NCBI GenBank assembly: GCA_036506455.1
Contig: DASXRT010000089.1
Location: 778 to 64,777, forward strand
From: Thermoanaerobaculia bacterium
GTDB lineage: Bacteria; Acidobacteriota; Thermoanaerobaculia; Gp7-AA8
Direction: 5' to 3'
DNA: 64,000 nt
Part shown: in pieces, positions 4,646 to 54,409 of the stretch
Position numbering within the stretch: the stretch's first letter is position 1
Layout: every line of letters starts with the position of its first letter
Position numbers and translations under genes: made by a program
The notes under the pieces: model-generated
Database searches by the model: none
Told to the model about the DNA's origin: nothing
The model's input: the letters and a program-made list of their open reading frames with translations, nothing else

Positions 4646-7066
4646 ATGGCAAAGAATCTGGTCATCGTCGAATCGCCTGCCAAGGCGAAAACGATCAACA
4701 AGTTCATCGGGAAGGACTATGTCGTCAAAGCTTCCGTTGGACATGTGCGCGATCTGCCCAAGAGTGAGCTGGGCGTCGACGAAGAGACTTTCGAGCCGAC
4801 CTACGAGGTGCTCGAAGGTAAAGAGAAGGTCGTCAGCGAGCTGAGAGCGGCGGCGAAAAAGGCCGACACCATCTACATCGCGTCCGATCCTGACCGCGAA
4901 GGGGAGGCGATCGGCTGGCACGTAATGAACCTGATCGACCGCGAATCAAAGAAAAAGGTTCGTCGCGTCCTCTTCCACGAGATCACGAAGAACGCCGTGA
5001 AGAAGGCGATGGAGAAGCCGGGCGAGATCGACATGAACAAGGTCAACGCCCAGCAGGCGCGTCGCGTTCTGGACCGCCTCGTCGGCTACAAGCTCTCACC
5101 ACTGCTGTGGGACAAGGTGCGGCGCGGCCTCTCCGCCGGCCGCGTGCAGTCCGTGGCGATGAAGATGATCGTCGACCGCGAAGAAGAGATCAAAGCATTC
5201 AATCCCGTGGAGTACTGGACATTCGCGGCGAAGCTCGAGGCGAAAACGCCGCCGCCGTTCGTCGCCAAACTCACCAAGGTCGAGGGCAAGAAGGCCGAGG
5301 TTCCGAACGAGGAGCTGGCGCGAAAGATCGAGGCGCAGCTCAAGAAGGGCGACTTCGTCGTCGAGACCGTCACGCGCAAGGAGAAGTCGCGTCACGCGAT
5401 GCCGCCGTTCATCACATCTACGCTTCAGCGGGCCGTATACAACCGCTACAAGTATCCGGTGAAGCGCACGATGCAGATCGCGCAGAAGCTCTATGAAGGC
5501 AAAGAGCTCGGCGCCGACGGTCTCGTCGGTCTCATCACCTACATGCGCACCGATTCCGTCCGCGTTTCCGACGATGCGCTGACCGAAGTGCGCGCGTACG
5601 TCGCTGGCAAGTACGGAACCGACAGCATTCCGGAAAAACCGAACTACTACAAGGTGAAGAAAGCAGCTCAGGCGCAGGAAGCGCACGAAGCGATCCGTCC
5701 GACTTCGACGGAGTTCGATCCCGAGAGGATCAAGGACTTTCTCACGAAAGAGGAATACAACATCTACAAGATCATCTTCGATCGCTTCGTCGCATCGCAG
5801 ATGATGCCCGCCATCTTCGACGCCACCGACGTCGACATCCGGTCCGGCAATCTCACGCTACGCGCATCAGGCGAAGTTCTGAAGTTCGCCGGCTTCCTCG
5901 CCGTCTTCCAGGATGGAACAGTCGCCGAGGAGGACGACGAAGAGAAGGCTGATGAAAAGGCGCTGCCGCCGATGAACGAAGGCGAGAAGCTCAAGCTCCT
6001 CGACCTCGAGACGAAGCAGAACTTCACGCAACCGCCTCCGCGCTTTACCGAGGCGACACTGGTGAAGGCGCTGGAGGAGAACGGGATTGGCCGCCCATCG
6101 ACGTACGGTCAGATCATGACCACGATCCAGACCCGCGACTACACCTACAAGCACGAAGGCAAGTTCCACCCCACGCACCTCGGCGTCATCGTGACGATGC
6201 TGCTCAAGCAATCGTTCGGCGACATCATCGACGAGAAGTACACCGCGCGTCTCGAAGAGGAGCTCGACGAGATCGAGGAAGGAAAGCTCCAGTGGACTGA
6301 CGCGATGAAGGAATTCGCCGTCAAGTTCAACGTCGATCTCGAGCGGGCCAAGACCGACATGATGCAGGTCAAAGGCGAGGGCATCGCCACCGATGAGATC
6401 TGCGAGACCTGCGGCGCGCCGATGGTCATCAAGTTCGGCCGCTTCGGTGAGTTTCTGGCCTGCTCGAATTACCCCGAATGCAAGACGACGAAGGAGATCG
6501 CCAAGGGCGATGCCGCTGACGCGGGGGACGACACGATCATCTGCGAGAAGTGCGGCCGGGGAATGACGCTGAAGCGATCGCGCTTCGGCCAGTTCTTCGC
6601 CTGCAGCGGCTATCCGGAGTGCAAGAACACGAAGGATCCGCGGCTTTTGAAAGCGAACATCCCGACTGAGCCGCAGCCGCCGTGCGAAAACTGCGGCAAG
6701 GAGATGGTGCTCAAGACCGGCCGCTACGGTCCGTTCTACTCTTGCTCCGGGTATCCCGACTGCCGCAACATCCGCAAGATCGGCGGAGGGAAATCAGTTC
6801 CGCCGAAGCCGACCGGAGTGAAGTGTCCGACGTGCGGCGAAGGCGAGTTGCTCGAGCGCCGTTCACGCCGGGGCATCTTCTACTCCTGCTCGCGCTATCC
6901 GAAGTGCGACTTCGCGCTGAACAGCCGTCCGGTGCCGCGTCCCTGCCCCAAGTGCGGCGCACCGTATCTACTCGAGAAGACGACCAAGCGTGAGGGTCAC
7001 ATCGAGTACTGCAACAATCCGAATTGCGATTACCGGCAGCCGATCGCAAACGTGGCCACCGCCTAG
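4646..7066 (+). CDS. topA: DNA topoisomerase I
   Basis: N-terminal TOPRIM MAKNLVIVESPAKAKTI, an active-site Tyr region, and a C-terminal tail with tandem C4 zinc ribbons (the first few as CxxC…CSxYPxC, the last as CxxC…CxxC). Confidence 0.95.
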   Translation: MAKNLVIVESPAKAKTINKFIGKDYVVKASVGHVRDLPKSELGVDEETFEPTYEVLEGKEKVVSELRAAAKKADTIYIASDPDREGEAIGWHVMNLIDRESKKKVRRVLFHEITKNAVKKAMEKPGEIDMNKVNAQQARRVLDRLVGYKLSPLLWDKVRRGLSAGRVQSVAMKMIVDREEEIKAFNPVEYWTFAAKLEAKTPPPFVAKLTKVEGKKAEVPNEELARKIEAQLKKGDFVVETVTRKEKSRHAMPPFITSTLQRAVYNRYKYPVKRTMQIAQKLYEGKELGADGLVGLITYMRTDSVRVSDDALTEVRAYVAGKYGTDSIPEKPNYYKVKKAAQAQEAHEAIRPTSTEFDPERIKDFLTKEEYNIYKIIFDRFVASQMMPAIFDATDVDIRSGNLTLRASGEVLKFAGFLAVFQDGTVAEEDDEEKADEKALPPMNEGEKLKLLDLETKQNFTQPPPRFTEATLVKALEENGIGRPSTYGQIMTTIQTRDYTYKHEGKFHPTHLGVIVTMLLKQSFGDIIDEKYTARLEEELDEIEEGKLQWTDAMKEFAVKFNVDLERAKTDMMQVKGEGIATDEICETCGAPMVIKFGRFGEFLACSNYPECKTTKEIAKGDAADAGDDTIICEKCGRGMTLKRSRFGQFFACSGYPECKNTKDPRLLKANIPTEPQPPCENCGKEMVLKTGRYGPFYSCSGYPDCRNIRKIGGGKSVPPKPTGVKCPTCGEGELLERRSRRGIFYSCSRYPKCDFALNSRPVPRPCPKCGAPYLLEKTTKREGHIEYCNNPNCDYRQPIANVATA

Positions 7067-9677: not shown

Positions 9678-9869
9678 TCAAGTCTCGGGAGCGCGCGGAA
9701 TGACGATCCATAGAATCACATAAACGAACGCACCCGGGAATGCCGCCGATAATATCGAGAACAGAACATAGAGGACGCGCACTCGCGTCGCACTCCACCC
9801 GAGCGCTTCTGCGATTCCTCCGCAAACGCCGCCGATGATGCTGTCACGCCGTGAACGATAGAGAGGCAT
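9678..9869 (-). CDS. PspC-domain small membrane protein
   Basis: RDSIIGGVCGGIAEALG matches the PspC domain core, followed by a single TM segment. Spacing to the flanking ligase and metX genes is 1–2 nt. Confidence 0.7.
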   Translation of the reverse strand: MPLYRSRRDSIIGGVCGGIAEALGWSATRVRVLYVLFSILSAAFPGAFVYVILWIVIPRAPET

Positions 9870-16443: not shown

Positions 16444-18396
16444 TCAGGCTTCTCGCTTCTCGCGCATCGCTGGCGCGATCAATCTCGCGAACAGAAGCAG
16501 CAGGACGATCGCCGCGACCGCGATGGCGATCCAGAAGTACTTTGTCTCCGGTCGATCGTCCGATGCCCCAAGCCCGGGCGGCTTGCTCATACCGATCTCT
16601 CGCGCCGGCTCGGTCAGAATTCTCGGCGCGAGCAGCGCGAGGTCGTATCGCGGCGCGTTGGCGCTGCGGTTGCCGTAGAGCAACGTGAGCGCGCCACCGG
16701 GATGCTCGAATCGCAGCGCGTAAGACGGCAGCAGGATCTCGATCGCTGTGATCGGCAGCGGAGCGTTGTCGCCTTCGTGGACGAGAACATCGATCGCCGG
16801 CGTGCCGTACAACGCGACATCAAAGACAAGCGGCGCAGCGGCCCTCTCGGGATCGTCGTTGCGCCACTGAGCCTGCGCGATCTCGGATTCTTCGCGTCCT
16901 CGGCGCTCATCGGCGGTCCGAACGAGTCGGACGTTTCGCTCGAAGACTCTTCCCGGCGTCGTGACGACAACTCTTCCTCCGGCCGGCAGTGTCTCGTACG
17001 GCAATCGAAGGTGATAGCGCGACACGCCGCGTTCGCTCTCGCCTCGTTGCGGAATTGCGAGATTGATTTTCAGCGGCTCGTCGCGATGTTCGACGATGTA
17101 GGGCACCTGATGCGACGTGGCGTTGGTGATACGAACGTCGGCGAGATCGTGACTGCGTGCGAGGACATCGACATCGAGTGGCAGGACCATGAGGCCGGTC
17201 ATTGCAGTTTCCAGCGGCCGCGCGTAGCGGAAGGATGCTCGATCGATCTTCGCAGCTAGCGCGGGAAGCGGTGGGGGAACCAACGTCTCGTTGACAGTGA
17301 CGGCTTGTTTCGGTGGGCTTGCCCACCGCGCGTGAGCGATCGCTCTGCGACCAACGAATTGCCGCGCCGCCTCGAGATCGTATTGCGGCCGTGACAGACG
17401 CGGATTCCCGTAGCGCGCGATGAGCGGCGAACCGTCAGGAGACTCGAAGTAGATCCACGGCTGCGGCGAAAACCTCGCGACGATCGCAGTGATCGGCAGC
17501 GGGGGATTCGCACCATCGTCGATGACAAGGTCCAGCTCACGGCCCGAAGGCGTAGTGATCGGTACATTCATCTCCGCAGCGACGAATCCGTCACGGACCG
17601 CGCGCCGTAGTTGCGATGCGCCGAGAACACCAGGTGTGATCGCGCCGCTGGTGAGCTGTGGCTCTGTCACACGCGCCGCTCGAAACACATCGCCATCCGC
17701 AACCTCAACCTCCAGCGCCTCGACAGGAAGACGCGGCGCGGGAAGATTGATTCGATAACGGCTCTTCCCCGGCTCGCTCGGCAATTTGCGAAACGGCATC
17801 GACGCGCGCAGCCGTTCCCGCGGAGCGACCGCGTCATGCAGTCTCACTTGGACGGTGGAGACGGCGGATACTTGCGCACTGGAACGATCGTCCCACGTGA
17901 CTCGAAAGTAACGGTATTCGCCTGCAGAGAAAGCGATCTCGGGCCGGCGAAGCTGCTGATCGGGAAGATCGAACACGGTCGTATCCGCGAGCATCGTCCA
18001 GTGAGAACGATCTCCGCCGCCTTCGAGAGTGACGTGTTTGAGGTACGGCGGCCTCACACCACCGAAACGAAGGCGATCGACATCGCGAATGGCACCCAGG
18101 TCGGCTTCGAAGCCGCTCGTTGTTTTCGTCGGAGCGATGGGCAATGGCGTCGCTGCTGTCCATCGCGGCTCGCGCGACCGTGGTTGAATCATCAGATAGC
18201 CGATCTCGCGGCCGGTGTTATCGACGAAACGCAAGTCGTGCAGATCGGGAGCGCCTCCGGCGAGCAGCGATTCATCGACGTCGAGACGATTCGCTCCCTT
18301 CGCAGTTGGCGTAACGAGCCGTTCGTGCTGAAACGACTGCGCCTCGATCGTAGCAGCGATCACCACCAACGCGACACCGAGAGCCACTTCCTTCAC
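16444..18396 (-). CDS. Secreted/anchored protein, DUF3999-like, partner of DUF2339
   Basis: N-terminal signal peptide and a C-terminal TM anchor (WIAIAVAAIVLLLLFARLI). 4-nt overlap with the upstream DUF2339 gene. DUF assignment is from memory of the conserved pairing. Confidence 0.55.
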   Translation of the reverse strand: MKEVALGVALVVIAATIEAQSFQHERLVTPTAKGANRLDVDESLLAGGAPDLHDLRFVDNTGREIGYLMIQPRSREPRWTAATPLPIAPTKTTSGFEADLGAIRDVDRLRFGGVRPPYLKHVTLEGGGDRSHWTMLADTTVFDLPDQQLRRPEIAFSAGEYRYFRVTWDDRSSAQVSAVSTVQVRLHDAVAPRERLRASMPFRKLPSEPGKSRYRINLPAPRLPVEALEVEVADGDVFRAARVTEPQLTSGAITPGVLGASQLRRAVRDGFVAAEMNVPITTPSGRELDLVIDDGANPPLPITAIVARFSPQPWIYFESPDGSPLIARYGNPRLSRPQYDLEAARQFVGRRAIAHARWASPPKQAVTVNETLVPPPLPALAAKIDRASFRYARPLETAMTGLMVLPLDVDVLARSHDLADVRITNATSHQVPYIVEHRDEPLKINLAIPQRGESERGVSRYHLRLPYETLPAGGRVVVTTPGRVFERNVRLVRTADERRGREESEIAQAQWRNDDPERAAAPLVFDVALYGTPAIDVLVHEGDNAPLPITAIEILLPSYALRFEHPGGALTLLYGNRSANAPRYDLALLAPRILTEPAREIGMSKPPGLGASDDRPETKYFWIAIAVAAIVLLLLFARLIAPAMREKREA

Positions 18397-46568: not shown

Positions 46569-47172
46569 TCCGGTACGCGGAGACGTAGCGGTTGCCCTTG
46601 AGAAAGAATCGGAGCGGCCAGTGCGCCGCGTCGGGTGCTCCTTCGACTCCGATGCGGGGACTGACGGCGATGTCGTCGTCATCGACCTCGATTTCGCGCG
46701 CGGTGATGAAGAGCCGCTCGCCGCGAAGACTCTCGCCGTCAAGGCTCTTGTCGATCTCCATCGCCGAGCAGATTTTTCCCGGACCTTTCATCAGATCGAA
46801 GTCGCGTTTCGCTTTCGGCCGGCGTTTGCGCAACGCTTCGATACCGCGCAGCGGCTCCGCTCCGCGCAGCAGCACGGCCTCGGCGATGTCCGCTTCCTGG
46901 GTGACGACATTGAGGCACCAGTGCATGCCGTAGGTGAAGTAGACGTACGCGTGACCGCCTTCGAGATACATCGACTCGTTTCGCGCCGAGCGTAAGCCAC
47001 GCCGGGCGTGACTGGCCGCGTCGTTCGCGCCGAGGTAGGCTTCGGCCTCGACGATGCGGGCAGAGAGGAGCTCACGTCCGATGCGCCGCCACAGAACGCA
47101 ACCGAGGAGCGAGCGGGCGACGGTCACTGTATCGCGCAGGTAAAATTCGGCAGGAAGCTTCGCCGGCTTCAT
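46561..47172 (-). CDS. mpg: DNA-3-methyladenine glycosylase (Mpg/AAG family)
   Basis: HAYVYFTYGMHWCLNVV core typical of the Mpg family. 203 aa. Confidence 0.85.
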   Translation of the reverse strand: MKPAKLPAEFYLRDTVTVARSLLGCVLWRRIGRELLSARIVEAEAYLGANDAASHARRGLRSARNESMYLEGGHAYVYFTYGMHWCLNVVTQEADIAEAVLLRGAEPLRGIEALRKRRPKAKRDFDLMKGPGKICSAMEIDKSLDGESLRGERLFITAREIEVDDDDIAVSPRIGVEGAPDAAHWPLRFFLKGNRYVSAYRNV

Positions 47173-48035
47173 GCGGAATGAATCGGGCCGGCTCCACGGC
47201 GGTCGAGCTGCTCTTCACTGACGTGTCTCCCGATCAGTGCGATCAGCTCGCGATGCACGCCACGAGGCGCACCGACGATATTGCCGCGCTCGAACCAGCG
47301 ATCGCCGCCTGCGAAGTCGGTGATCACGCCTCCCGCTTCTCGGACGAGAAGCGAACCGGCGGCGACATCCCAGGGCGAGAGATGGATCTCGAAGAAGCCG
47401 TCGAAGATCGCAGCGGCGGTATAGGCGAGATCGAGCGCCGCCGACCCGGCACGGCGTACACCTTTTGCTAAACGAATGACGTCTTCAAAAATACGAACAT
47501 AAACAGATACGTATTCTTGTGCGCGAAAGGGAAATCCGGTGGCGAGGAACGCACCTTCGACGTGTTCCTGATCGGAGACCTGCATGCGCTTGCCGTTGCG
47601 GAACGCGCCTGCGCCTTTTTCGCCGGTGAAGAAAAGCTCTCGCAGCGGCTCATAGATCACGCCGGCTGTGATCTCGTTTCCGACGTGCAGGCCGATGGAG
47701 ACCGACCACACTGGAAAATGCTGGAGATAGTTCGACGTGCCATCGAGCGGATCGATGACCCAAGTACGCTCGCTTGTCCCGCCCGACGCTCCGCTCTCTT
47801 CACCAAGAAACGAATCAGCGGGAGAAAGATCATGAATGCACGAGATGATCGCCTTCTCGGCCTCGCGATCGGCGGCGGATACCCAATCGTTGCGCGCCTT
47901 CATGTCGGCGTCTGCTTTGCCGAGGGTCTCCCAATAGCGGATGAGGACGGCGGCGCCGCGTTTGGCCGCCTCGATGCCGATCTCGACGTCGTTCAAGCGA
48001 CCGCTATGGTGTAGCATCTCCCGCACAGTGTCCAT
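47169..48035 (-). CDS. suhB: Inositol monophosphatase family protein (SuhB-like)
   Basis: Motifs …EESG…, WVIDPLDGT and …WDVAAG…. Start at ATG 48035 (MDTVREM), or 48020. Confidence 0.85.
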   Translation of the reverse strand: MDTVREMLHHSGRLNDVEIGIEAAKRGAAVLIRYWETLGKADADMKARNDWVSAADREAEKAIISCIHDLSPADSFLGEESGASGGTSERTWVIDPLDGTSNYLQHFPVWSVSIGLHVGNEITAGVIYEPLRELFFTGEKGAGAFRNGKRMQVSDQEHVEGAFLATGFPFRAQEYVSVYVRIFEDVIRLAKGVRRAGSAALDLAYTAAAIFDGFFEIHLSPWDVAAGSLLVREAGGVITDFAGGDRWFERGNIVGAPRGVHRELIALIGRHVSEEQLDRRGAGPIHSA

Positions 48036-51000
48036 GAGAGGGGCTTCACGCCGCAGCAGCGACGCGGTCGTGGTGTCGTTGCGAAATTTCGCCTGGCCTC
48101 GACCGGCGATAGCCACACTGCGTCATCCGACGCTGCCGTGGTTCGAGAGCTTCGCGCCGGAGGTCGAGCTCAGCGCCATACCAATCGCCGATCTGCGCAA
48201 CGCCGGCGCACGCGATCGGCTTTCGCTCGTCGGTCAGTTTGCGACGCACATCGCGCTGTTGCAGTTTGCCGGCATCGCCGACGGCGAATTCGACGCGAAC
48301 GAATGGGTCGTCGTCCGCAAGCGCGGCAGCGACTGCCGCCTGGTCCGCATCGCGGCGCGCGAATGCGATGCCGACGCGACACCGTCTCCGCTGCACAGCA
48401 CCCAGCATTTCGCCGAAGCGATCCATGCGCCGGAGCTGGAGACGCTGAAACAATCGTGGACGCGAGCGGAGTCGATCTTCGCCGAAGTGCACGGCCGCCT
48501 TCGAAGCGATGCCGCGGCGGATATGCGATGGCTGCAGCGATGCGCTGTCGGCGAGATTCTTCCGCCCGGTGCCGAGGCGATCAGCGCGATGTGGAGCAGC
48601 GGCGGACCGCACGAGATCGCCGGCACGGACGCACTCGACGCGTTCCACCTTTACGCGGCACTTGACGAATCGGCACGCCTCATCGTCATCGGCAGCGAGT
48701 TCCCGATTCAACGCTATGCGGCCCTTGCCTCGCTCGATGCTTCGCTGGTCGGCTCGACGCTCTCGCCCGCCGAGGTCGCGGATCGCTTATCGGAAGTGAA
48801 GAGCGGCCAGGTTCTGGTGGTCTCGGGCAATCTCGATGATGAGTCTCGGCGTGTCGTCGAGATGATCAGACGGCACGAAGAGCAGCCGGCCATCGTCCGC
48901 CGATGGACGGTTCTCTCGACGCGGCTCGCCGCACAGCGTGCGCTGGAGGAGCGATTGATCGCGCTCCCCGACGCTCGCGCATGGCTCGATGCGTTCACGG
49001 CGAGCGATGTGTATGACAAGTATCTCCGTGACGGCGCACAGCCGGTCGACGACGGCGTGTTCGCACGAACGCCGGAGCCGCGCCGCTCGTACATCGCAGC
49101 GCTGGCCTTGCTCGGGACACGGATCCCGTCCACGCTGGCGCGTGACTTTCTTTCAGAGTTCCTTTTCGAGCAGCCGCTCGATGCGCTAATCGTCGACGGC
49201 GTGACATCGCTCGAAGATGACTGCTTCGTCTTCGCGTCCGAAGCGGTGCGCGAGCACTGCGCACGTCATGTGCCGGAGGCATCGCGACCAGCACTCGCGC
49301 GCGCTGCGGCATCGGTGACGGAGAAATTGGAAGAGATTCAGTGGCGGAGCGCGGAAGAAACCGTGGACGCGCTCAATGCCCTACCGCGATCGACGCTGAC
49401 GCCCCGACTCGCTTCACGCCTCGCCAATGCTCTCGTCGACAGCGGTCGCTATCGCGATGCGCGGGATCTCGCACCGCTTCTGGCCGAAGATGCGCGCGAA
49501 CTGCTGTTGGCGCGGTGCGAGCGGCGAACCGGCGACTATGCGACAGCATTGGTCCATGTGGAACATCTTCACGGTTTCGACGCGGAGATCCTGCGCGCGG
49601 AGCTTCTTCGCCTGACCGGTCGCATCGACATAGCGCGTCAGGTGCTCGAGCGCGCGGAACCGCACACTGACGAAGAGAAGATGCGCCTGGCATATGAGCG
49701 TGCCGTCCTGGCGATCGACGAGGGAGAACGTCCCATCGCCGTTGCGGGCGATCACTACCTGGCCCGCCGTTCGGCAACGTACAGCGCGTTGATGCACGGC
49801 GATTTCGAAGCGGCTGCGGACCTCGCTGCTCAATCGTTCGCCGCCGCGCGTTCGGCCGCGGAGCGCATCGACTCCTGCCTCGACCGTGTATTCGCATCGT
49901 TCTCGTCGGGGCGCTGGTCGGAGACACGCGCCATCGCGCTCGAGGCGCTTGCCATCGTCGACGAGGCGCAGGGTGATCGCGCTGCGGCCGGCATCCTCTT
50001 TACCCTGACCTTTGTCGAAGCTGACGATGGCCGCTGGACGTCGGCCGCGCAACATATCGCCCGACTGCGACAGTATTACGCGAATGATGCTCTGCGACTG
50101 GCCGAGATCGACCTGCTGTCCGGATACCTCGAGTTCGCTCGCGGTCATTTCGACGAAGCGCGCCGTCTCGTCTCGACTCTTTTCGAGCGCAAGGAGCTCA
50201 TGCCGCAGATTCGAGAAGCCGCGGCACTGGTCCTCGACGAGATCGACTGGATCGAGCAGCGCCAGGCGTCGCTGCGATCGACGGGGAAAACTCAGAACCG
50301 CGAGCTTGACGAGCGTCATCGTTTGATGCACACGCGACGGGGAACGCCGGTGGATCCGTTGAGCGGATTTGCGGCCGCGCTGGCGCGATGGGAAGCGTCG
50401 CCGCAGTCCGAGCCACCGCAGCCCGCGACTCGCTCCGAGAAACTGAAACTCTTCCGCTCCTCGCTCGGCATCTCGCGCCACGATGTCGCGCGCACGATCG
50501 TCTCGGAGCTTTCGATCACGATGCCGGAGGCGGCGCCTGCTCGAACGACGGCTGACGTCGAGATGCTGCGCATCGCCGCATCGGCTGAGTATCCCTTTCG
50601 TGCCGATGCTTTCGCCATTCCGTGGTGTCACGTCACGCGAAACCGTCTCGGCCAGTGGTCGCAGGATGGCTTGCGATCGTTCGACGGCGCCACGCTCGAT
50701 CGCATCGCGTCATCGCTCGAACCCGACTGGCTCCGCTGCAACGAGCGCGAGATGCTGTTCATCGAGGGTTCGACGGCGTGGCCGCAGGCGTCGCGTGATG
50801 CGATCGCAGCGCTCTTCCGCACGCGCGCGGAGAATCATCGATTGCGGCGCATTCTCGAGCAGGATGAAGCGTCGGCACCCTCGCGTCGCGATTCGATCGA
50901 AGGCATCGTGGGTGATTCTGTGGCGATGCGTGAGATCTTCTCGCTCGTCGAGCGGATCGCGCAGCGCGACGTCCCGGTCTGCATCCTCGGCGAATCCGGA

Positions 51001-51858
51001 ACGGGGAAGGAGCTCGTCGGTCGCGCCATTCATCGCGCGTCATCGCGCCGACATAAGACCTTTACGGCGGTCAACTGCGCGGCGCTTCCGGAGAATCTGG
51101 TGGAGAGCGAGCTGTTCGGACACATGCGCGGTGCATTTACGGGCGCTGACCGCGATCGCGCCGGCTTGATCGAGACCTCTGACGGCGGCACGTTGTTCCT
51201 CGATGAGATCGGCGAGATGCCGCATGCCGCGCAGGCGAAGCTGCTGCGCTTCCTGCAGGACGGCGAGTTCCGCCGCGTCGGCGATACGACGAACCGGACC
51301 GCCGATGTACGCATCGTCAGCGCCACGAATCGCAAGCTCGAGGCCGCGGTCGAAGAAGGACGTTTCCGCGAGGACCTGTACTACCGCGTCCGCGGCATCG
51401 AGGTCGTTCTGCCTCCGCTGCGCGAACGCGGCGAAGACGTCATGCTTCTAGCGCAATACTTCCTCGCCCGCGAGCGGGCCAAACATCGAGCCGGTCCGCA
51501 GTCGTTCACACCCGAAGTCGAGACCCTGCTTCAGTCATACGGCTGGCCCGGAAATGTCCGCGAGCTGCAGAACACCGTTCGCGCCGCGCACGCGATGGCG
51601 GGCGACGCGCGCGAGATCGACATCGAGCATCTTCCGGAGCGGCTGCGCAAGGTGCGGCCGGTGAAGGTGACCGCCGGGTCGTATCAGGATGCGGTGGCGC
51701 GCTTCCGGCGCGATCTCATCGAAAAGTCTTTGGCCGCAGCGGCCGGAAACCAGAATCGCGCCGCGGCGCTGCTGAAGATCTCGCGTCAGGCTCTCGCGTA
51801 TCAGATCCGCGAGCTCGGCATCATGGTCGGAAAGCAGGCCCAGCGCCCGCGCGCGTGA
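48034..51858 (+). CDS. Giant orphan sigma-54-dependent activator: ~950-aa N-terminal helical-repeat (TPR-like) domain + AAA+ sigma-54 module + Fis HTH; no receiver domain
   Basis: C-terminus holds GESGTGKE Walker A, ESELFGHMRGAFTGAD (GAFTGA) and a PGNVRELQN arginine finger, then an HTH. Start is uncertain: ATG 48034 overlaps the suhB start codon as a CATG palindrome; GTG 48070/48073 and TTG 48079 are alternatives. The ORF-track start at 47941 lies inside suhB. Confidence 0.8.
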   Translation: MRGASRRSSDAVVVSLRNFAWPRPAIATLRHPTLPWFESFAPEVELSAIPIADLRNAGARDRLSLVGQFATHIALLQFAGIADGEFDANEWVVVRKRGSDCRLVRIAARECDADATPSPLHSTQHFAEAIHAPELETLKQSWTRAESIFAEVHGRLRSDAAADMRWLQRCAVGEILPPGAEAISAMWSSGGPHEIAGTDALDAFHLYAALDESARLIVIGSEFPIQRYAALASLDASLVGSTLSPAEVADRLSEVKSGQVLVVSGNLDDESRRVVEMIRRHEEQPAIVRRWTVLSTRLAAQRALEERLIALPDARAWLDAFTASDVYDKYLRDGAQPVDDGVFARTPEPRRSYIAALALLGTRIPSTLARDFLSEFLFEQPLDALIVDGVTSLEDDCFVFASEAVREHCARHVPEASRPALARAAASVTEKLEEIQWRSAEETVDALNALPRSTLTPRLASRLANALVDSGRYRDARDLAPLLAEDARELLLARCERRTGDYATALVHVEHLHGFDAEILRAELLRLTGRIDIARQVLERAEPHTDEEKMRLAYERAVLAIDEGERPIAVAGDHYLARRSATYSALMHGDFEAAADLAAQSFAAARSAAERIDSCLDRVFASFSSGRWSETRAIALEALAIVDEAQGDRAAAGILFTLTFVEADDGRWTSAAQHIARLRQYYANDALRLAEIDLLSGYLEFARGHFDEARRLVSTLFERKELMPQIREAAALVLDEIDWIEQRQASLRSTGKTQNRELDERHRLMHTRRGTPVDPLSGFAAALARWEASPQSEPPQPATRSEKLKLFRSSLGISRHDVARTIVSELSITMPEAAPARTTADVEMLRIAASAEYPFRADAFAIPWCHVTRNRLGQWSQDGLRSFDGATLDRIASSLEPDWLRCNEREMLFIEGSTAWPQASRDAIAALFRTRAENHRLRRILEQDEASAPSRRDSIEGIVGDSVAMREIFSLVERIAQRDVPVCILGESGTGKELVGRAIHRASSRRHKTFTAVNCAALPENLVESELFGHMRGAFTGADRDRAGLIETSDGGTLFLDEIGEMPHAAQAKLLRFLQDGEFRRVGDTTNRTADVRIVSATNRKLEAAVEEGRFREDLYYRVRGIEVVLPPLRERGEDVMLLAQYFLARERAKHRAGPQSFTPEVETLLQSYGWPGNVRELQNTVRAAHAMAGDAREIDIEHLPERLRKVRPVKVTAGSYQDAVARFRRDLIEKSLAAAAGNQNRAAALLKISRQALAYQIRELGIMVGKQAQRPRA

Positions 51859-51861
51859 CGA
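51807..51861 (+). repeat. Direct repeat copy A: the 3-prime end of the activator gene (…IRELGIMVGKQAQRPRA*)
   Basis: About 85% identical to 52991–53046; the first 21 nt are identical. Confidence 0.7.
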
Positions 51862-51898
51862 AGCCGCCGCATGTCAACCATGCAAGACAGAACAGTCG

Positions 51899-52966
51899 CT
51901 AATCTTTGAAGGCACTCAAGCCAACGATTGCCAAGGTGATCCCAAGGCCGATAAGCAGCCATTCGGAGATGGTAGGAATGGCCGGGGGAGATGCAACGGC
52001 CGCGCGCGGCTCACCGATCACCGTCAAAGAAAACACAATCATGTTGACGCCATAAGGAACAGTCGCTGCGATCTCGCTACCGCTCGCCAAGTCGAGTTTA
52101 CGAACGCGATCGCTGCGGCCAGCTTCCCAAAACGATGTTCGATCGGCGTCTAGAGCAATCTGCGGGCCGCCTGAATACGTCTGTGCGATCGTGCCATCCG
52201 GTCGAATGCGCAGAATTCCGGTGTCCGTTCCGAGCAAGACATCGTTGCCCGGGAGCACCCTTAACGCTCCGATCGAGCCGAGCGTCGGTATTGCTGTTGG
52301 CAGTGGAGACAGCGACTGCGCGGTGCAGACGTTGTAGCGAGCATTCGTTGCCGGTATTAATGCCGGCACCGGCCCTTGCGGCGCACTGTTGTAGTACATC
52401 GTGCACTGATCAGCGGCGAGATCGATGTGCGATGCGAATTGTGGTAAAGAAAAAGTTAGCACGACACTGAAGCTGCTGTCGTATTTCTTCAGTGCAGCCT
52501 GGTCCGCAACATATAGGTTTCCGTTGGCGTCGAATACGAACGAACCTGCCGGACCAGCGACGCCGCTCAATGAACCGCTGGGAGAAATGCTGTAGATAGC
52601 GCCGATGATCGAACCAAAAAGTGTGGAGTTGTAGAAATTGAGATCAAGAGGAACAAAATTCGTTGGAAGATCGATCGTGCTCCTGAAACTACCCGCGGCC
52701 GTATAGACTTGTATCGAAGGCTCTGTCGTGTTCTGGAAAGCCGGTATCGGCGCTACGCTCGCGAAAAGATCCCGCGGCTGAAACTGCGCCGAGACGGGAA
52801 CCGCGGCGCAGAATGTCAGCGCGATCACGAGTAGCACCCCTAAGCGTCTGCGATTTTTGCTGACGCCTGGAGCGTCCGCCAAACTTACTACGACGTCTTG
52901 ACGGCCGGCGCTTCGATCTACCTGTGAAGTTCGCCCCAAAGGAATTTGACCCCAGAAAGTAGCCAA
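51899..52966 (-). CDS. Secreted Ser/Thr/Ala-rich protein with IPTL-CTERM-like C-terminal sorting signal
   Basis: C-terminus …PPAIPTISEWLLIGLGITLAIVGLSAFKD matches the IPT[LI]SEW + TM + short tail architecture. Upstream signal peptide RLGVLLVIALTFCAAVPVSAQ. The gene body is visibly lower in GC than its surroundings. Start codon uncertain. Confidence 0.55.
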   Translation of the reverse strand: MATFWGQIPLGRTSQVDRSAGRQDVVVSLADAPGVSKNRRRLGVLLVIALTFCAAVPVSAQFQPRDLFASVAPIPAFQNTTEPSIQVYTAAGSFRSTIDLPTNFVPLDLNFYNSTLFGSIIGAIYSISPSGSLSGVAGPAGSFVFDANGNLYVADQAALKKYDSSFSVVLTFSLPQFASHIDLAADQCTMYYNSAPQGPVPALIPATNARYNVCTAQSLSPLPTAIPTLGSIGALRVLPGNDVLLGTDTGILRIRPDGTIAQTYSGGPQIALDADRTSFWEAGRSDRVRKLDLASGSEIAATVPYGVNMIVFSLTVIGEPRAAVASPPAIPTISEWLLIGLGITLAIVGLSAFKD

Positions 52967-52990
52967 CGCGTACCGAAACCGTGTTCATCC

Positions 52991-53046
52991 CCGCGAGCTC
53001 GGCATCATGGTGAGCAAAGCAGCCTCAGCGCCCGCGCGTGTGACAA
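52991..53046 (+). repeat. Direct repeat copy B: decayed duplicate of the activator gene's 3-prime end (translates PRELGIMVSKAASAPARV)
   Basis: Matches 51807–51861. Together the two copies bracket the ~1.1-kb low-GC IPTL-CTERM gene. Confidence 0.7.
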
Positions 53047-53098
53047 AACACCGCGGGATTTCATCCGATTCACGAGCCGCTCGTAGAATCTCTCCCAC

Positions 53099-54409
53099 GT
53101 GACCCGCAAACTCGTGGTTGTCCTCGCGCTGCTGACGGCCGCGCGCTGTGCGCTCTATTCGGATGTATCGATCGAGCCGCTGACGATCATCCCGACGAAA
53201 ATCGAGCGCGGCGCCGATCTGCGGGACATGGTCAAGCGCGCCGACTACCTCCGCGCCGTGGAGCTCGCGCCGAACGTCGACGCCCGCGTGCGGAAGAGCG
53301 CGGAAGAGCTCGTGGCTCTCGGACAAGCCGAGCTGGCCGCGAATCGCATCACAGAGGCGCGGCACCATCTCCGGACGGCGATTGACCTCTCACCCTTTCA
53401 CACGACTTACGCCGATGCGGCCTGGGGCCTCTCGCAGGTCGAGTTCATGGACAACAACTACGAGACGAGCCTCGAATGGGCGCAGGTGGCGATGCAGCAT
53501 GGCCTCACCGTCCTGCAATGGCATCTCGATTACCTCAAGGCGATGTCCCACGTGCAGGCTTATCGCGCGGCCAGCGCCGTCCGCAGCGAGGAAATGCGGA
53601 TGAAGATCGGCCGCCCCGACGTGCCCCGCATCGAAGTACGGCTCAACAAGGCAGAGTCGACGACGACGGCGGTGATCGATTCCGGTGCCGTCCTGTCGAT
53701 CATGTCGCAGCGCCTGGCGTCACAGGTCCCCGTCAAACGCCTGCCGACGTCGCGAGGCACGTTCTACGGACTCCTCGGAGAGCCGATCTCGGTGGATTTC
53801 GCGATGGTCGACCTGCTCGAGATCGGCGGCATCGTTCTCGCCGATGTGCCCGTGGCGATCATGCCGGACGATAAGATGCGCTTCCTCGTCAGCGGCAAGA
53901 AAGAATTCAGGATCGACTTCCTCCTCGGCGCAAATCTGCTGAAAGAGTTCCGGCTCGACTTCAACTTCGACAACAATCACGTCAAGTTCACGCGATTGAC
54001 GTCGACCGATAAGCGTCCGGTCGCGAATCAGAATCTCTTCTTCGAACAATTTCGCCCGCATGTCCGCGGCACGGTGAACAAACGCGGCTGGTTCCTCTTC
54101 GTGCTCGATACGGGATCGGAAGTGACGTTCCTCAATGAGCATCAACTTCCATCGCTTCCGATCAACATGTTCGCTCCACGTGTGCACAACGCGACGTTGC
54201 AAGGCCTCGGCGGAGCGAGAAAGCATGGGTCGAAGATCGAAGAGGTCGAGATCGGCGTCGACCGCTGGGCCGGTGCATTCCGTACGCTGCCGATGTACAG
54301 CGGCGGAGAGCAGGAGCGGTCCGTGGGAATCATCGGAGAGAACTTCTTGAAGAATTTCCACGCGGTGATCGACTTCGGAAGGATGAGAGTGGATTTGCAG
54401 AGGCGGTGA
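53099..54409 (+). CDS. Secreted retropepsin-like aspartic protease with two tandem catalytic domains (pseudo-dimer)
   Basis: Signal peptide MTRKLVVVLALLTAARCA. Two D[ST]G motifs (VIDSGAVLS and VLDTGSEVT), each followed by a hydrophobic flap region. Confidence 0.7.
   Translation: MTRKLVVVLALLTAARCALYSDVSIEPLTIIPTKIERGADLRDMVKRADYLRAVELAPNVDARVRKSAEELVALGQAELAANRITEARHHLRTAIDLSPFHTTYADAAWGLSQVEFMDNNYETSLEWAQVAMQHGLTVLQWHLDYLKAMSHVQAYRAASAVRSEEMRMKIGRPDVPRIEVRLNKAESTTTAVIDSGAVLSIMSQRLASQVPVKRLPTSRGTFYGLLGEPISVDFAMVDLLEIGGIVLADVPVAIMPDDKMRFLVSGKKEFRIDFLLGANLLKEFRLDFNFDNNHVKFTRLTSTDKRPVANQNLFFEQFRPHVRGTVNKRGWFLFVLDTGSEVTFLNEHQLPSLPINMFAPRVHNATLQGLGGARKHGSKIEEVEIGVDRWAGAFRTLPMYSGGEQERSVGIIGENFLKNFHAVIDFGRMRVDLQRR

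Follow-up and report, generated by a model that had tools for sequence, protein, structure and literature searches.

Several classes of integrating element are known to enter protein-coding genes close to their 3′ ends without destroying them. In Escherichia coli, the element e14 integrates in icd, supplies the gene with a new 3′ end, and leaves behind a 163-bp pseudo-icd fragment (PMC6379469; PMC13626634). When the element is excised, icd undergoes two conservative aspartate-to-glutamate replacements together with several synonymous substitutions (PMC13626634). Integrative and mobilizable elements (IMEs) with tyrosine integrases target the 3′ ends, and more rarely the 5′ ends, of protein genes, so that one of the two flanking repeats includes the gene end, and cis-mobilizable elements (CIMEs) retain the attachment sites attL and attR after losing the integrase, lie in housekeeping genes, likewise at the 3′ and more rarely the 5′ end, and may accrete into tandem arrays separated by att copies (PMC5704250). 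CIMEs have been described in Firmicutes, have repeats of 8–60 bp, and usually hold several decayed genes. Here, we analyze a 64,000-nt stretch of contig DASXRT010000089.1 from a Thermoanaerobaculia bacterium (phylum Acidobacteriota), which makes up nearly all of this 65-kb contig and is referred to below as the window, in which a segment of about 1.13 kb with one cargo gene lies between a working and a displaced copy of the 3′ end of a gene for a giant sigma-54-dependent activator (Table 1). The reading we prefer, held with about as much confidence as doubt, is that this single-gene islet was horizontally acquired and entered by recombination within the last ~55 bp of the activator gene, as an att-flanked element of the e14/icd type that has no integrase and in this respect resembles a CIME.

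The islet is bracketed by two direct repeats, which blastn aligns over 57 nt at 87.7% identity. The alignment begins with 21 of 21 identical bases (CCGCGAGCTCGGCATCATGGT), continues with a 1-nt indel, and ends with 28 matches in 32 positions, and the starts of the two copies are 1184/1185 nt apart. A preliminary description, made from the letters of this DNA, had called attention to a duplication of the activator 3′ end about 1.18 kb downstream and to the full identity of its first 21 bases, and on alignment both statements hold. The 21-mer has only these two sites in the window, even with up to three mismatches permitted; the expectation by chance is 0.01, and two hits were obtained in 0 of 100 shuffles. 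None of the eight differences found in 56 positions falls within it (hypergeometric p ~0.017, post hoc). The 21 bases code for RELGIMV, a conserved motif, and the orthologous locus L084 has the identical 21-mer. Past the stop codon, weak similarity persists for ~10 nt (TGACGAAGCCGCCGC versus TGACAAAACACCGCGG).

Only one of the copies can end a gene. The activator open reading frame (ORF) runs unbroken through copy 1, in frame, to the C-terminus …IRELGIMVGKQAQRPRA and a TGA at 51856–51858 (closing residues …YQIRELGIMVGKQAQRPRA), and its tail has the same length as those of the orthologues (GKxxxRPRx before the stop). Copy 2 is unusable for this purpose, because the 1-nt indel shifts its frame and puts the RELGIMV codons and the TGA at 53041–53043 out of register; in an annotation, it would be better labelled a pseudo-3′ end than part of a gene.

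That the segment between the repeats is an insertion follows from comparison with loci that do not have it. Orthologous loci were found through the unique N-terminal region of the activator, which in them is 57–65% identical to that of the window. A scan of the genome collection with the whole activator had returned 80 loci, all of them paralogous sigma-54 activators matched through the generic AAA+ domain and therefore unusable for synteny. The three orthologous loci (L083, L084, and L085) share with the window the gene order MPG glycosylase, inositol monophosphatase, activator, TPR/retropepsin, glmU, and yvcK. None of the three has an insert or a repeat, and the retropepsin/TPR gene begins 53, 55, or 58 nt past the activator stop. 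The corresponding interval in the window, of 55 nt, separates the copy 2 TGA from the retropepsin start, and copy 2, the spacer, and the beginning of the retropepsin gene (52991–53286) form a single alignment block with positions 9840–10146 of L084. Since copy 2, spacer, and retropepsin gene are thus collinear with three insert-free loci, the segment upstream of them is an insertion, and copy 2 occupies the ancestral position of the gene end.

The preliminary description had left a choice between an insertion or recombination event that duplicated the end of its target gene and the remnant of a second activator, and had proposed a synteny comparison as the check. The comparison upholds the former and speaks against the latter. 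A decayed tandem duplicate would also leave a direct repeat of the gene end, and if the islet were instead ancestral and had been lost from the relatives, recombination between the repeats would restore the empty site exactly. However, no activator-like sequence precedes copy 2 in the repeat and orthologue alignments, the distance from copy 2 to the retropepsin gene is that of the single gene end in L083–L085, the composition of the cargo gene is foreign, and a loss would have to have happened three times independently. We regard both variants, second activator and ancestral islet, as very improbable.

The insert contains one long ORF only, on the minus strand from 51899 to 52966, which is open up to a TTG at 52966 and probably starts at the TTG at 52882. 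Sliding-window GC content drops to 0.51–0.58 across the insert compared to ~0.65 around it, in agreement with the single minus-strand gene of lower GC that had been noted before. The ORF has a GC content of 0.56 and a GC content at third codon positions (GC3) of 0.61, with GC3 values of 0.76–0.83 in the activator, retropepsin, glmU, yvcK, and MPG genes and 0.68 in the inositol monophosphatase gene. By these measures of composition, the cargo gene is foreign to its surroundings.

The cargo product has the layout of a secreted protein with a C-terminal sorting signal. It begins with a signal peptide ending in …AAVPVSAQ, has the motif IDLAADQCTMYY in its body, and ends in IPTISEWLLIGLGITLAIVGLSAFKD, where a hydrophobic transmembrane helix and then a basic residue come after IPTISEW. 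It thereby shares with IPTL-CTERM proteins (TIGR04174) the sequence I-P-T-[LI]-S-[ED]-W, the helix, and the basic residue, but differs from them in scoring below the cut-off of the model and in having a propeller body that belongs to no Pfam or NCBIfam family. Because its C-terminus reaches 12.3 bits (E 0.16) where the curated cut-off is 20.5, we keep the earlier label “IPTL-CTERM-like” for it and do not call it a member; its homologue P0002 scores 26.5 bits. An AlphaFold2 model (predicted local distance difference test score, pLDDT, 81) shows an N-terminal helix at residues 14–25, an all-β propeller at 39–288, and a transmembrane helix at 305–326. The best Foldseek matches in the PDB are all generic seven-bladed propellers (E 1e-10, template modeling score ~0.5), and the protein is accordingly predicted to adopt a β-propeller fold of the SGL/NHL-like kind. 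Against Pfam and NCBIfam, the cargo protein gave no family match and no transposase domain; distant homologues carry PF08450. Close homologues are few: among 5.8 billion proteins, there are only two, P0001 (61% identical) and P0002 (55%).

A single locus of this kind would be ordinary, and it is the recurrence of the same architecture across genomes that makes the islet noteworthy. A metagenome scan with a profile of the cargo family gave 80 loci, and the two closest of these, L096 and L097, bear the same scar. Duplicated 3′ gene ends bracket three of the four closest relatives of the cargo gene, and four of the five closest family members when the window is counted. The repeats measure 57 nt in the window, 66 nt in L102, 71 nt in L002, ~120 nt in L096, and 393 nt in L097. 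As a control, 1.16 Mb of paralogous sigma-54 activator loci contained 11 comparable repeat pairs, or ~10 per Mb; bracketing of four out of five closest family members is far beyond chance. At every locus examined, moreover, the GC3 of the cargo gene (0.52–0.64) is lower than that of most of its neighbors (0.75–0.83). The same recurrence bears on whether the arrangement could be an assembly artefact, a contig misjoined at a short shared sequence. The window does come from a metagenome-assembled genome (MAG), and several homologues lie on very short contigs. On the other hand, the two copies differ at eight positions and so are not one sequence collapsed or used twice, the architecture reappears in independent assemblies from different projects, and both flanks are syntenic with the orthologues. 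A misjoin is, in our judgment, barely credible.

Each bracketed relative sits at a different gene. In L002, the cargo gene (P0001) lies between two 71-nt copies, 70 of 71 positions identical, of the 3′ end of tag (3-methyladenine glycosylase I). Comparison with the empty sites L176 and L177 shows the downstream copy to be continuous with the native tag end (…HPASSS and stop), and the upstream copy to be broken off 10 nt before the native stop, so that a chance stop closes the gene with HPES instead of HPASSS. The cargo is on the strand of its target in L002 and on the opposite strand in the window. With 8 and 9 nt of flank, the L002 insert is a bare ORF between near-perfect repeats, which suggests that this minimal unit moved recently. 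Locus L097 has the order scoA, scoB, a 126-codon remnant of an S8 peptidase gene, the propeller gene, which is frameshifted, and the last 393 nt of scoB once more. In L001, P0002 is preceded by a full S8 gene, to whose end the remnant is 55% identical (E 4e-42). Between the 393-nt copies there are 34 differences, distributed 3/4/27 over codon positions 1/2/3, with 27 codons changed synonymously and 5 non-synonymously; the displaced copy has kept its frame open, and the stop codon marks the limit of the homology. Because synonymous changes outnumber non-synonymous ones 27 to 5, the two copies appear to have evolved as working genes before they were joined.

In L096, a ~120-nt block made up of the converging ends of selB and a DUF4412-like gene is present three times, each time with the same boundaries on either side. 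These copies stand between the propeller gene and another small cassette, which has a ParE-like fragment. That cassette lies between copies B and C (4921–5631) and holds a minus-strand ORF in which a weak match to a ParE-like toxin (PF24732, E 0.003) is fused to a remnant of the selB end. This second cassette suggests serial insertion, or accretion, of different cargos at one site. The more distant locus L102 (33% identical) has a 1.9-kb insert with the propeller gene, flanked on both sides by a copy of 66 nt from the 5′ end of the downstream BNR/sortilin-like gene. At L001 (P0002), where the contig stops 196 nt upstream of the S8 gene, no repeat is visible; the S8 peptidase and propeller pair there has a GC3 of 0.61–0.64, with neighbors at 0.75–0.81. 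At the distant homologues L086 and L087, no flank repeats were found. Repeats in L098, L101, and L112 were rejected as target duplications, being tandem paralogues of the propeller gene, and those in L160 and L099, which by their coordinates lie at or over the C-terminal coding end of the gene, were set aside as probably shared C-terminal sorting-signal sequence.

An architecture of the same kind, with unrelated cargo and in a distant phylum, was seen in L035, from a Polyangiaceae MAG (JAHBVX010000006.1, 8797–10518). Here, ~200 nt comprising the 3′ end of a sigma-54 activator gene (FHA-GAF-AAA+-HTH) and the sequence after its stop are duplicated 1.5 kb downstream, as 142 nt at 93% identity followed by 50 nt at 84%. 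The copies enclose 1.3 kb with two small ORFs whose N-termini resemble signal peptides or those of lipoproteins. One nucleotide is deleted in the downstream copy, and the differences fall 5/2/6 by codon position, without codon bias.

According to our preferred reading, the DNA that entered the activator gene would have been a small circle bearing a target-gene end of its own. Recombination within the 21 bases coding for RELGIMV would have joined the activator to the incoming end, giving rise to copy 1 and keeping the gene intact, while the native end would have been displaced 1.18 kb downstream as copy 2, where it later suffered the frameshift. The tail of copy 1 would then be derived from the element, and copy 2 would retain the native tail. 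The reaction might have been carried out by a tyrosine integrase supplied in trans, or by RecA acting on the shared gene-end segment, and the islet would either have lost its integrase or never have had one. In line with such a route, the repeats point to two alleles, or to defined att segments, rather than to decayed target duplications, because of the synonymous bias in L097, the freedom of the 21-mer in the window from differences, and the common edges in L096.

A number of observations weigh against this reading. No recombinase gene or clear remnant of one was found in or beside the inserts of the window, L002, L096, and L097, and a crude tblastn search for integrases across all loci gathered found none; a stretch in L102 that looked integrase-like by eye was dropped, as it had no Pfam match. 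The insert in the window has no room for a recombinase gene, and no helper element was found. No junction motif common to the five different targets was seen by eye, and the 393-nt and ~120-nt repeats are longer than the 8–60 bp that is usual for att repeats. In L002, the gene end was closed without a homologous substitute. Relative to the S8-propeller operon, the edge of the insert also varies, including the full S8 gene in L001, its last 126 codons in L097, and 8 nt in L002. Finally, the tails of copies 1 and 2 are about equally similar to the orthologous tails; telling the native copy by such likeness was ruled out, the divergence being too large, and even the nearest relative, with 65% protein identity over the activator N-terminal region, is too distant to settle which tail is native. 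Because the insert contains no recombinase, the islet is at most CIME-like, a repeat, an empty site, and an intact target gene all having been found. A stretch in L001 that counts, by contrast, in favor of the reading lies directly after P0002 (4554–4895): interrupted by stops (…MAHSSIQMTQRYGRP…), it matches Phage_integrase (PF00589) with an E-value of 2.6e-4, below the cut-off, over profile positions 137–167 of 172, and is possibly the trace of a tyrosine-recombinase C-terminus.

Several of these points would fit a duplicative insertion in which no att site took part. A linear fragment with the propeller gene would have been caught at a staggered double-strand break, or would have been copied in by a replication template switch that returned upstream, in which case both copies would be native, alike to begin with, and would have diverged later. 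The wide span of the repeat lengths, the five unrelated targets with no motif seen at their junctions, and the failure to find either terminal inverted repeats or a recombinase would all be accounted for, as would the arbitrary points of the S8-propeller operon at which the fragment begins and the L002 copies, nearly identical and with the gene closed by a chance stop. L035, where the decay of the displaced copy shows no codon bias, may be a case in point, or may simply be an older event. However, random breaks would not be expected to give successive cassettes with identical repeat edges, as in L096, nor to place all eight differences in the window outside the 21-mer. The excess of synonymous changes in L097 is likewise unexpected, although it could be mimicked if the working copy had later been replaced by another allele, and the recurrence of the same cargo family is left unexplained. 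On balance, we consider long target duplication without an att site rather unlikely.

Transposition in the strict sense finds less to build on. The IS1634 group and IS1182 make long and variable target duplications, of tens to hundreds of bases, and have a DDE transposase and terminal inverted repeats. The islet has the direct repeats of target DNA in common with these insertion sequence (IS) elements, but neither a transposase nor terminal inverted repeats were found in it, and judging from its ends and gene content, it would not be placed among the DDE transposons or IS elements.

The allele-like differences in L097 could also arise by homology-facilitated illegitimate recombination (HFIR), in which a donor with the propeller gene beside its own activator would recombine with the recipient by a crossover in the gene end and an illegitimate join upstream of the recipient gene end, leaving a partial duplication. 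HFIR would further agree with the block of identity at the conserved 21-mer, and it does not need a recombinase. Its usual outcome, as described, is the replacement or deletion of DNA in the recipient, and a duplication is at odds with this. Documented cases come from E. coli conjugation and from naturally competent bacteria (PMC3240628). For each of the five targets, however, a donor with a like adjacency would be needed, which only moves the question of origin, and the shared repeat edges of L096 would be unexpected. We therefore think HFIR decidedly unlikely.

A broader proposal, which we put forward as unlikely but worth stating, is that the propeller gene, with or without a piece of the S8 gene, constitutes a gene-sized, recombinase-less cassette that moves together with the end of a host gene and takes unrelated gene ends as its insertion sites, duplicating 57–393 nt there. 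Such cassettes might spread by homology-driven (Campbell-type) integration of small circles or, less likely, by insertion of 5′-truncated copies, as the series from full S8 gene through 126 codons to 8 nt might suggest. That other genes may travel by this route too is hinted at by L096, with its second cassette, and by L035, with its unrelated cargo.

Compared to the described systems, the islet is closest in design to e14, and to phage 21, in icd: each sits inside the 3′ end of a protein gene that stays intact, with the native end left as a fragment at the far junction, and the synonymous-rich changes in icd parallel the differences between the L097 copies. The scale is different, in that e14 is ~15 kb and encodes an integrase whereas the islet, at 1.13 kb, holds a single cargo gene and has no recombinase, and the icd pseudo-end is 163 bp whereas the islet repeat is 57 nt and its displaced copy is already frameshifted. 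Among arrays formed by accretion of CIMEs, IMEs, and integrative and conjugative elements (ICEs), L096 resembles one. The islet differs from the CIMEs and other described cases in its phylum (host class Thermoanaerobaculia of the Acidobacteriota), in its gene-sized extent, in repeats of 57–393 nt, in having one cargo family at five different targets with no helper element identified, and in the near-perfect repeats of L002.

For a poorly studied phylum, the locus offers a clean and datable acquisition of a single gene, in which empty sites, a filled site, and a decaying relic of the gene end can all be compared. Five different genes have the same cargo at one of their ends, and this suggests that very small att-flanked cassettes form a class of their own, one that standard finders of islands, integrons, and IS elements would miss because its members carry no recombinase. 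If the carrier mechanism were identified, it would explain the spread of surface-protein genes among soil Acidobacteriota and would provide a signature to search for, namely a low-GC3 gene enclosed by two copies of a gene end. Should the recombinase-less cassette reading be true, single genes would be gained in Acidobacteriota by a route separate from those of integrons, IS elements, and classical islands.

Table 1. Features of the islet and of the adjoining part of the window.
Feature	Positions	Strand	Description
Repeat copy 1 (attL-like)	51807..51862	+	Working activator end: last 52 coding bases (17 codons), stop, and 4 nt
Inserted segment, ~1.13 kb	51863..52990		Missing from orthologous loci; one gene with a trailer of ~36 nt and a leader of 24–108 nt
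Cargo gene, secreted C-terminally anchored β-propeller (predicted), 327 aa	51899..52882	-	Translation from TTG 52882; homologues; AlphaFold2
Repeat copy 2 (attR-like)	52991..53047	+	Relic of activator 3′ end in ancestral position, with a one-base frameshift
Sigma-54-dependent activator (enhancer-binding protein), target gene	48034..51858	+	Long unique N-terminal region, AAA+ Sigma54_activat, Fis-type HTH
Native activator-retropepsin spacer	53048..53098	+	Alignment with L083/L084
TPR and double retropepsin-like aspartic protease gene	53099..54409	+	Pfam gag-asp_proteas, Asp_protease_2, RVP, and TPR; ancestral neighbor downstream of the activator

The target gene itself is well supported as a sigma-54 activator, with Pfam matches to PF00158 at residues 989–1155 (E 1e-68) and to HTH_8 at residues 1257–1291. 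Protein record P0012, named sigma 54-interacting regulator and from Thermoanaerobaculia, is 100% identical to it. The longest activator ORF begins at 47941, and the public record starts at its residue M32 (48034). In its longest form, the ORF shares 47941–48116 with the oppositely oriented inositol monophosphatase ORF (47169–48116), and the M32 start shrinks the overlap to 48034–48116. For the retropepsin protein, an exact-sequence look-up found no record, the called start there probably being different. Just upstream of its gene, at ~53082–53089, the spacer contains the block CGTAGAAT, which is common to L084; L083 has CAGTACAAT at this place. A second GC dip, to 0.53–0.59, occurs at 53700–54400 in the 3′ half of the retropepsin/TPR gene; because GC3 stays high there (0.78) and the GC content at second codon positions is low (0.37), the dip reflects amino-acid composition and not a second insertion. 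The order of genes from MPG glycosylase to yvcK is kept although the activator N-terminal regions share just 57–65% identity, and a functional tie between the giant activator and the protease gene is plausible.

Elsewhere in the window, there is no other propeller, S8, integrase, or tag sequence, no credible match to an S8 peptidase remnant was found in the leader of the insert, and the flanks of the insert have no DNA homology to L001 or L002 outside the ORF. A scan for sigma-70 promoters and terminators over 51700–53200 gave nothing beyond chance level. A separate 48-nt direct repeat (77% identity) was seen at 16740–16787 and 17481–17528, at a spacing of 741 nt.

Distant members of the propeller family form tandem paralogue pairs with 66–85% DNA identity, in L098 (370–2473), L101 (1321–3273), and L112 (2762–4647), and the family therefore also grows by local duplication. 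Among the loci of distant propeller homologues, direct-repeat pairs of 42–152 nt at 82–97% identity occur in L148 (5817–7684), L149 (1023–3323), and L121 (2036–4467). These pairs may represent further gene-end duplications, and that of L121 flanks the propeller homologue itself.

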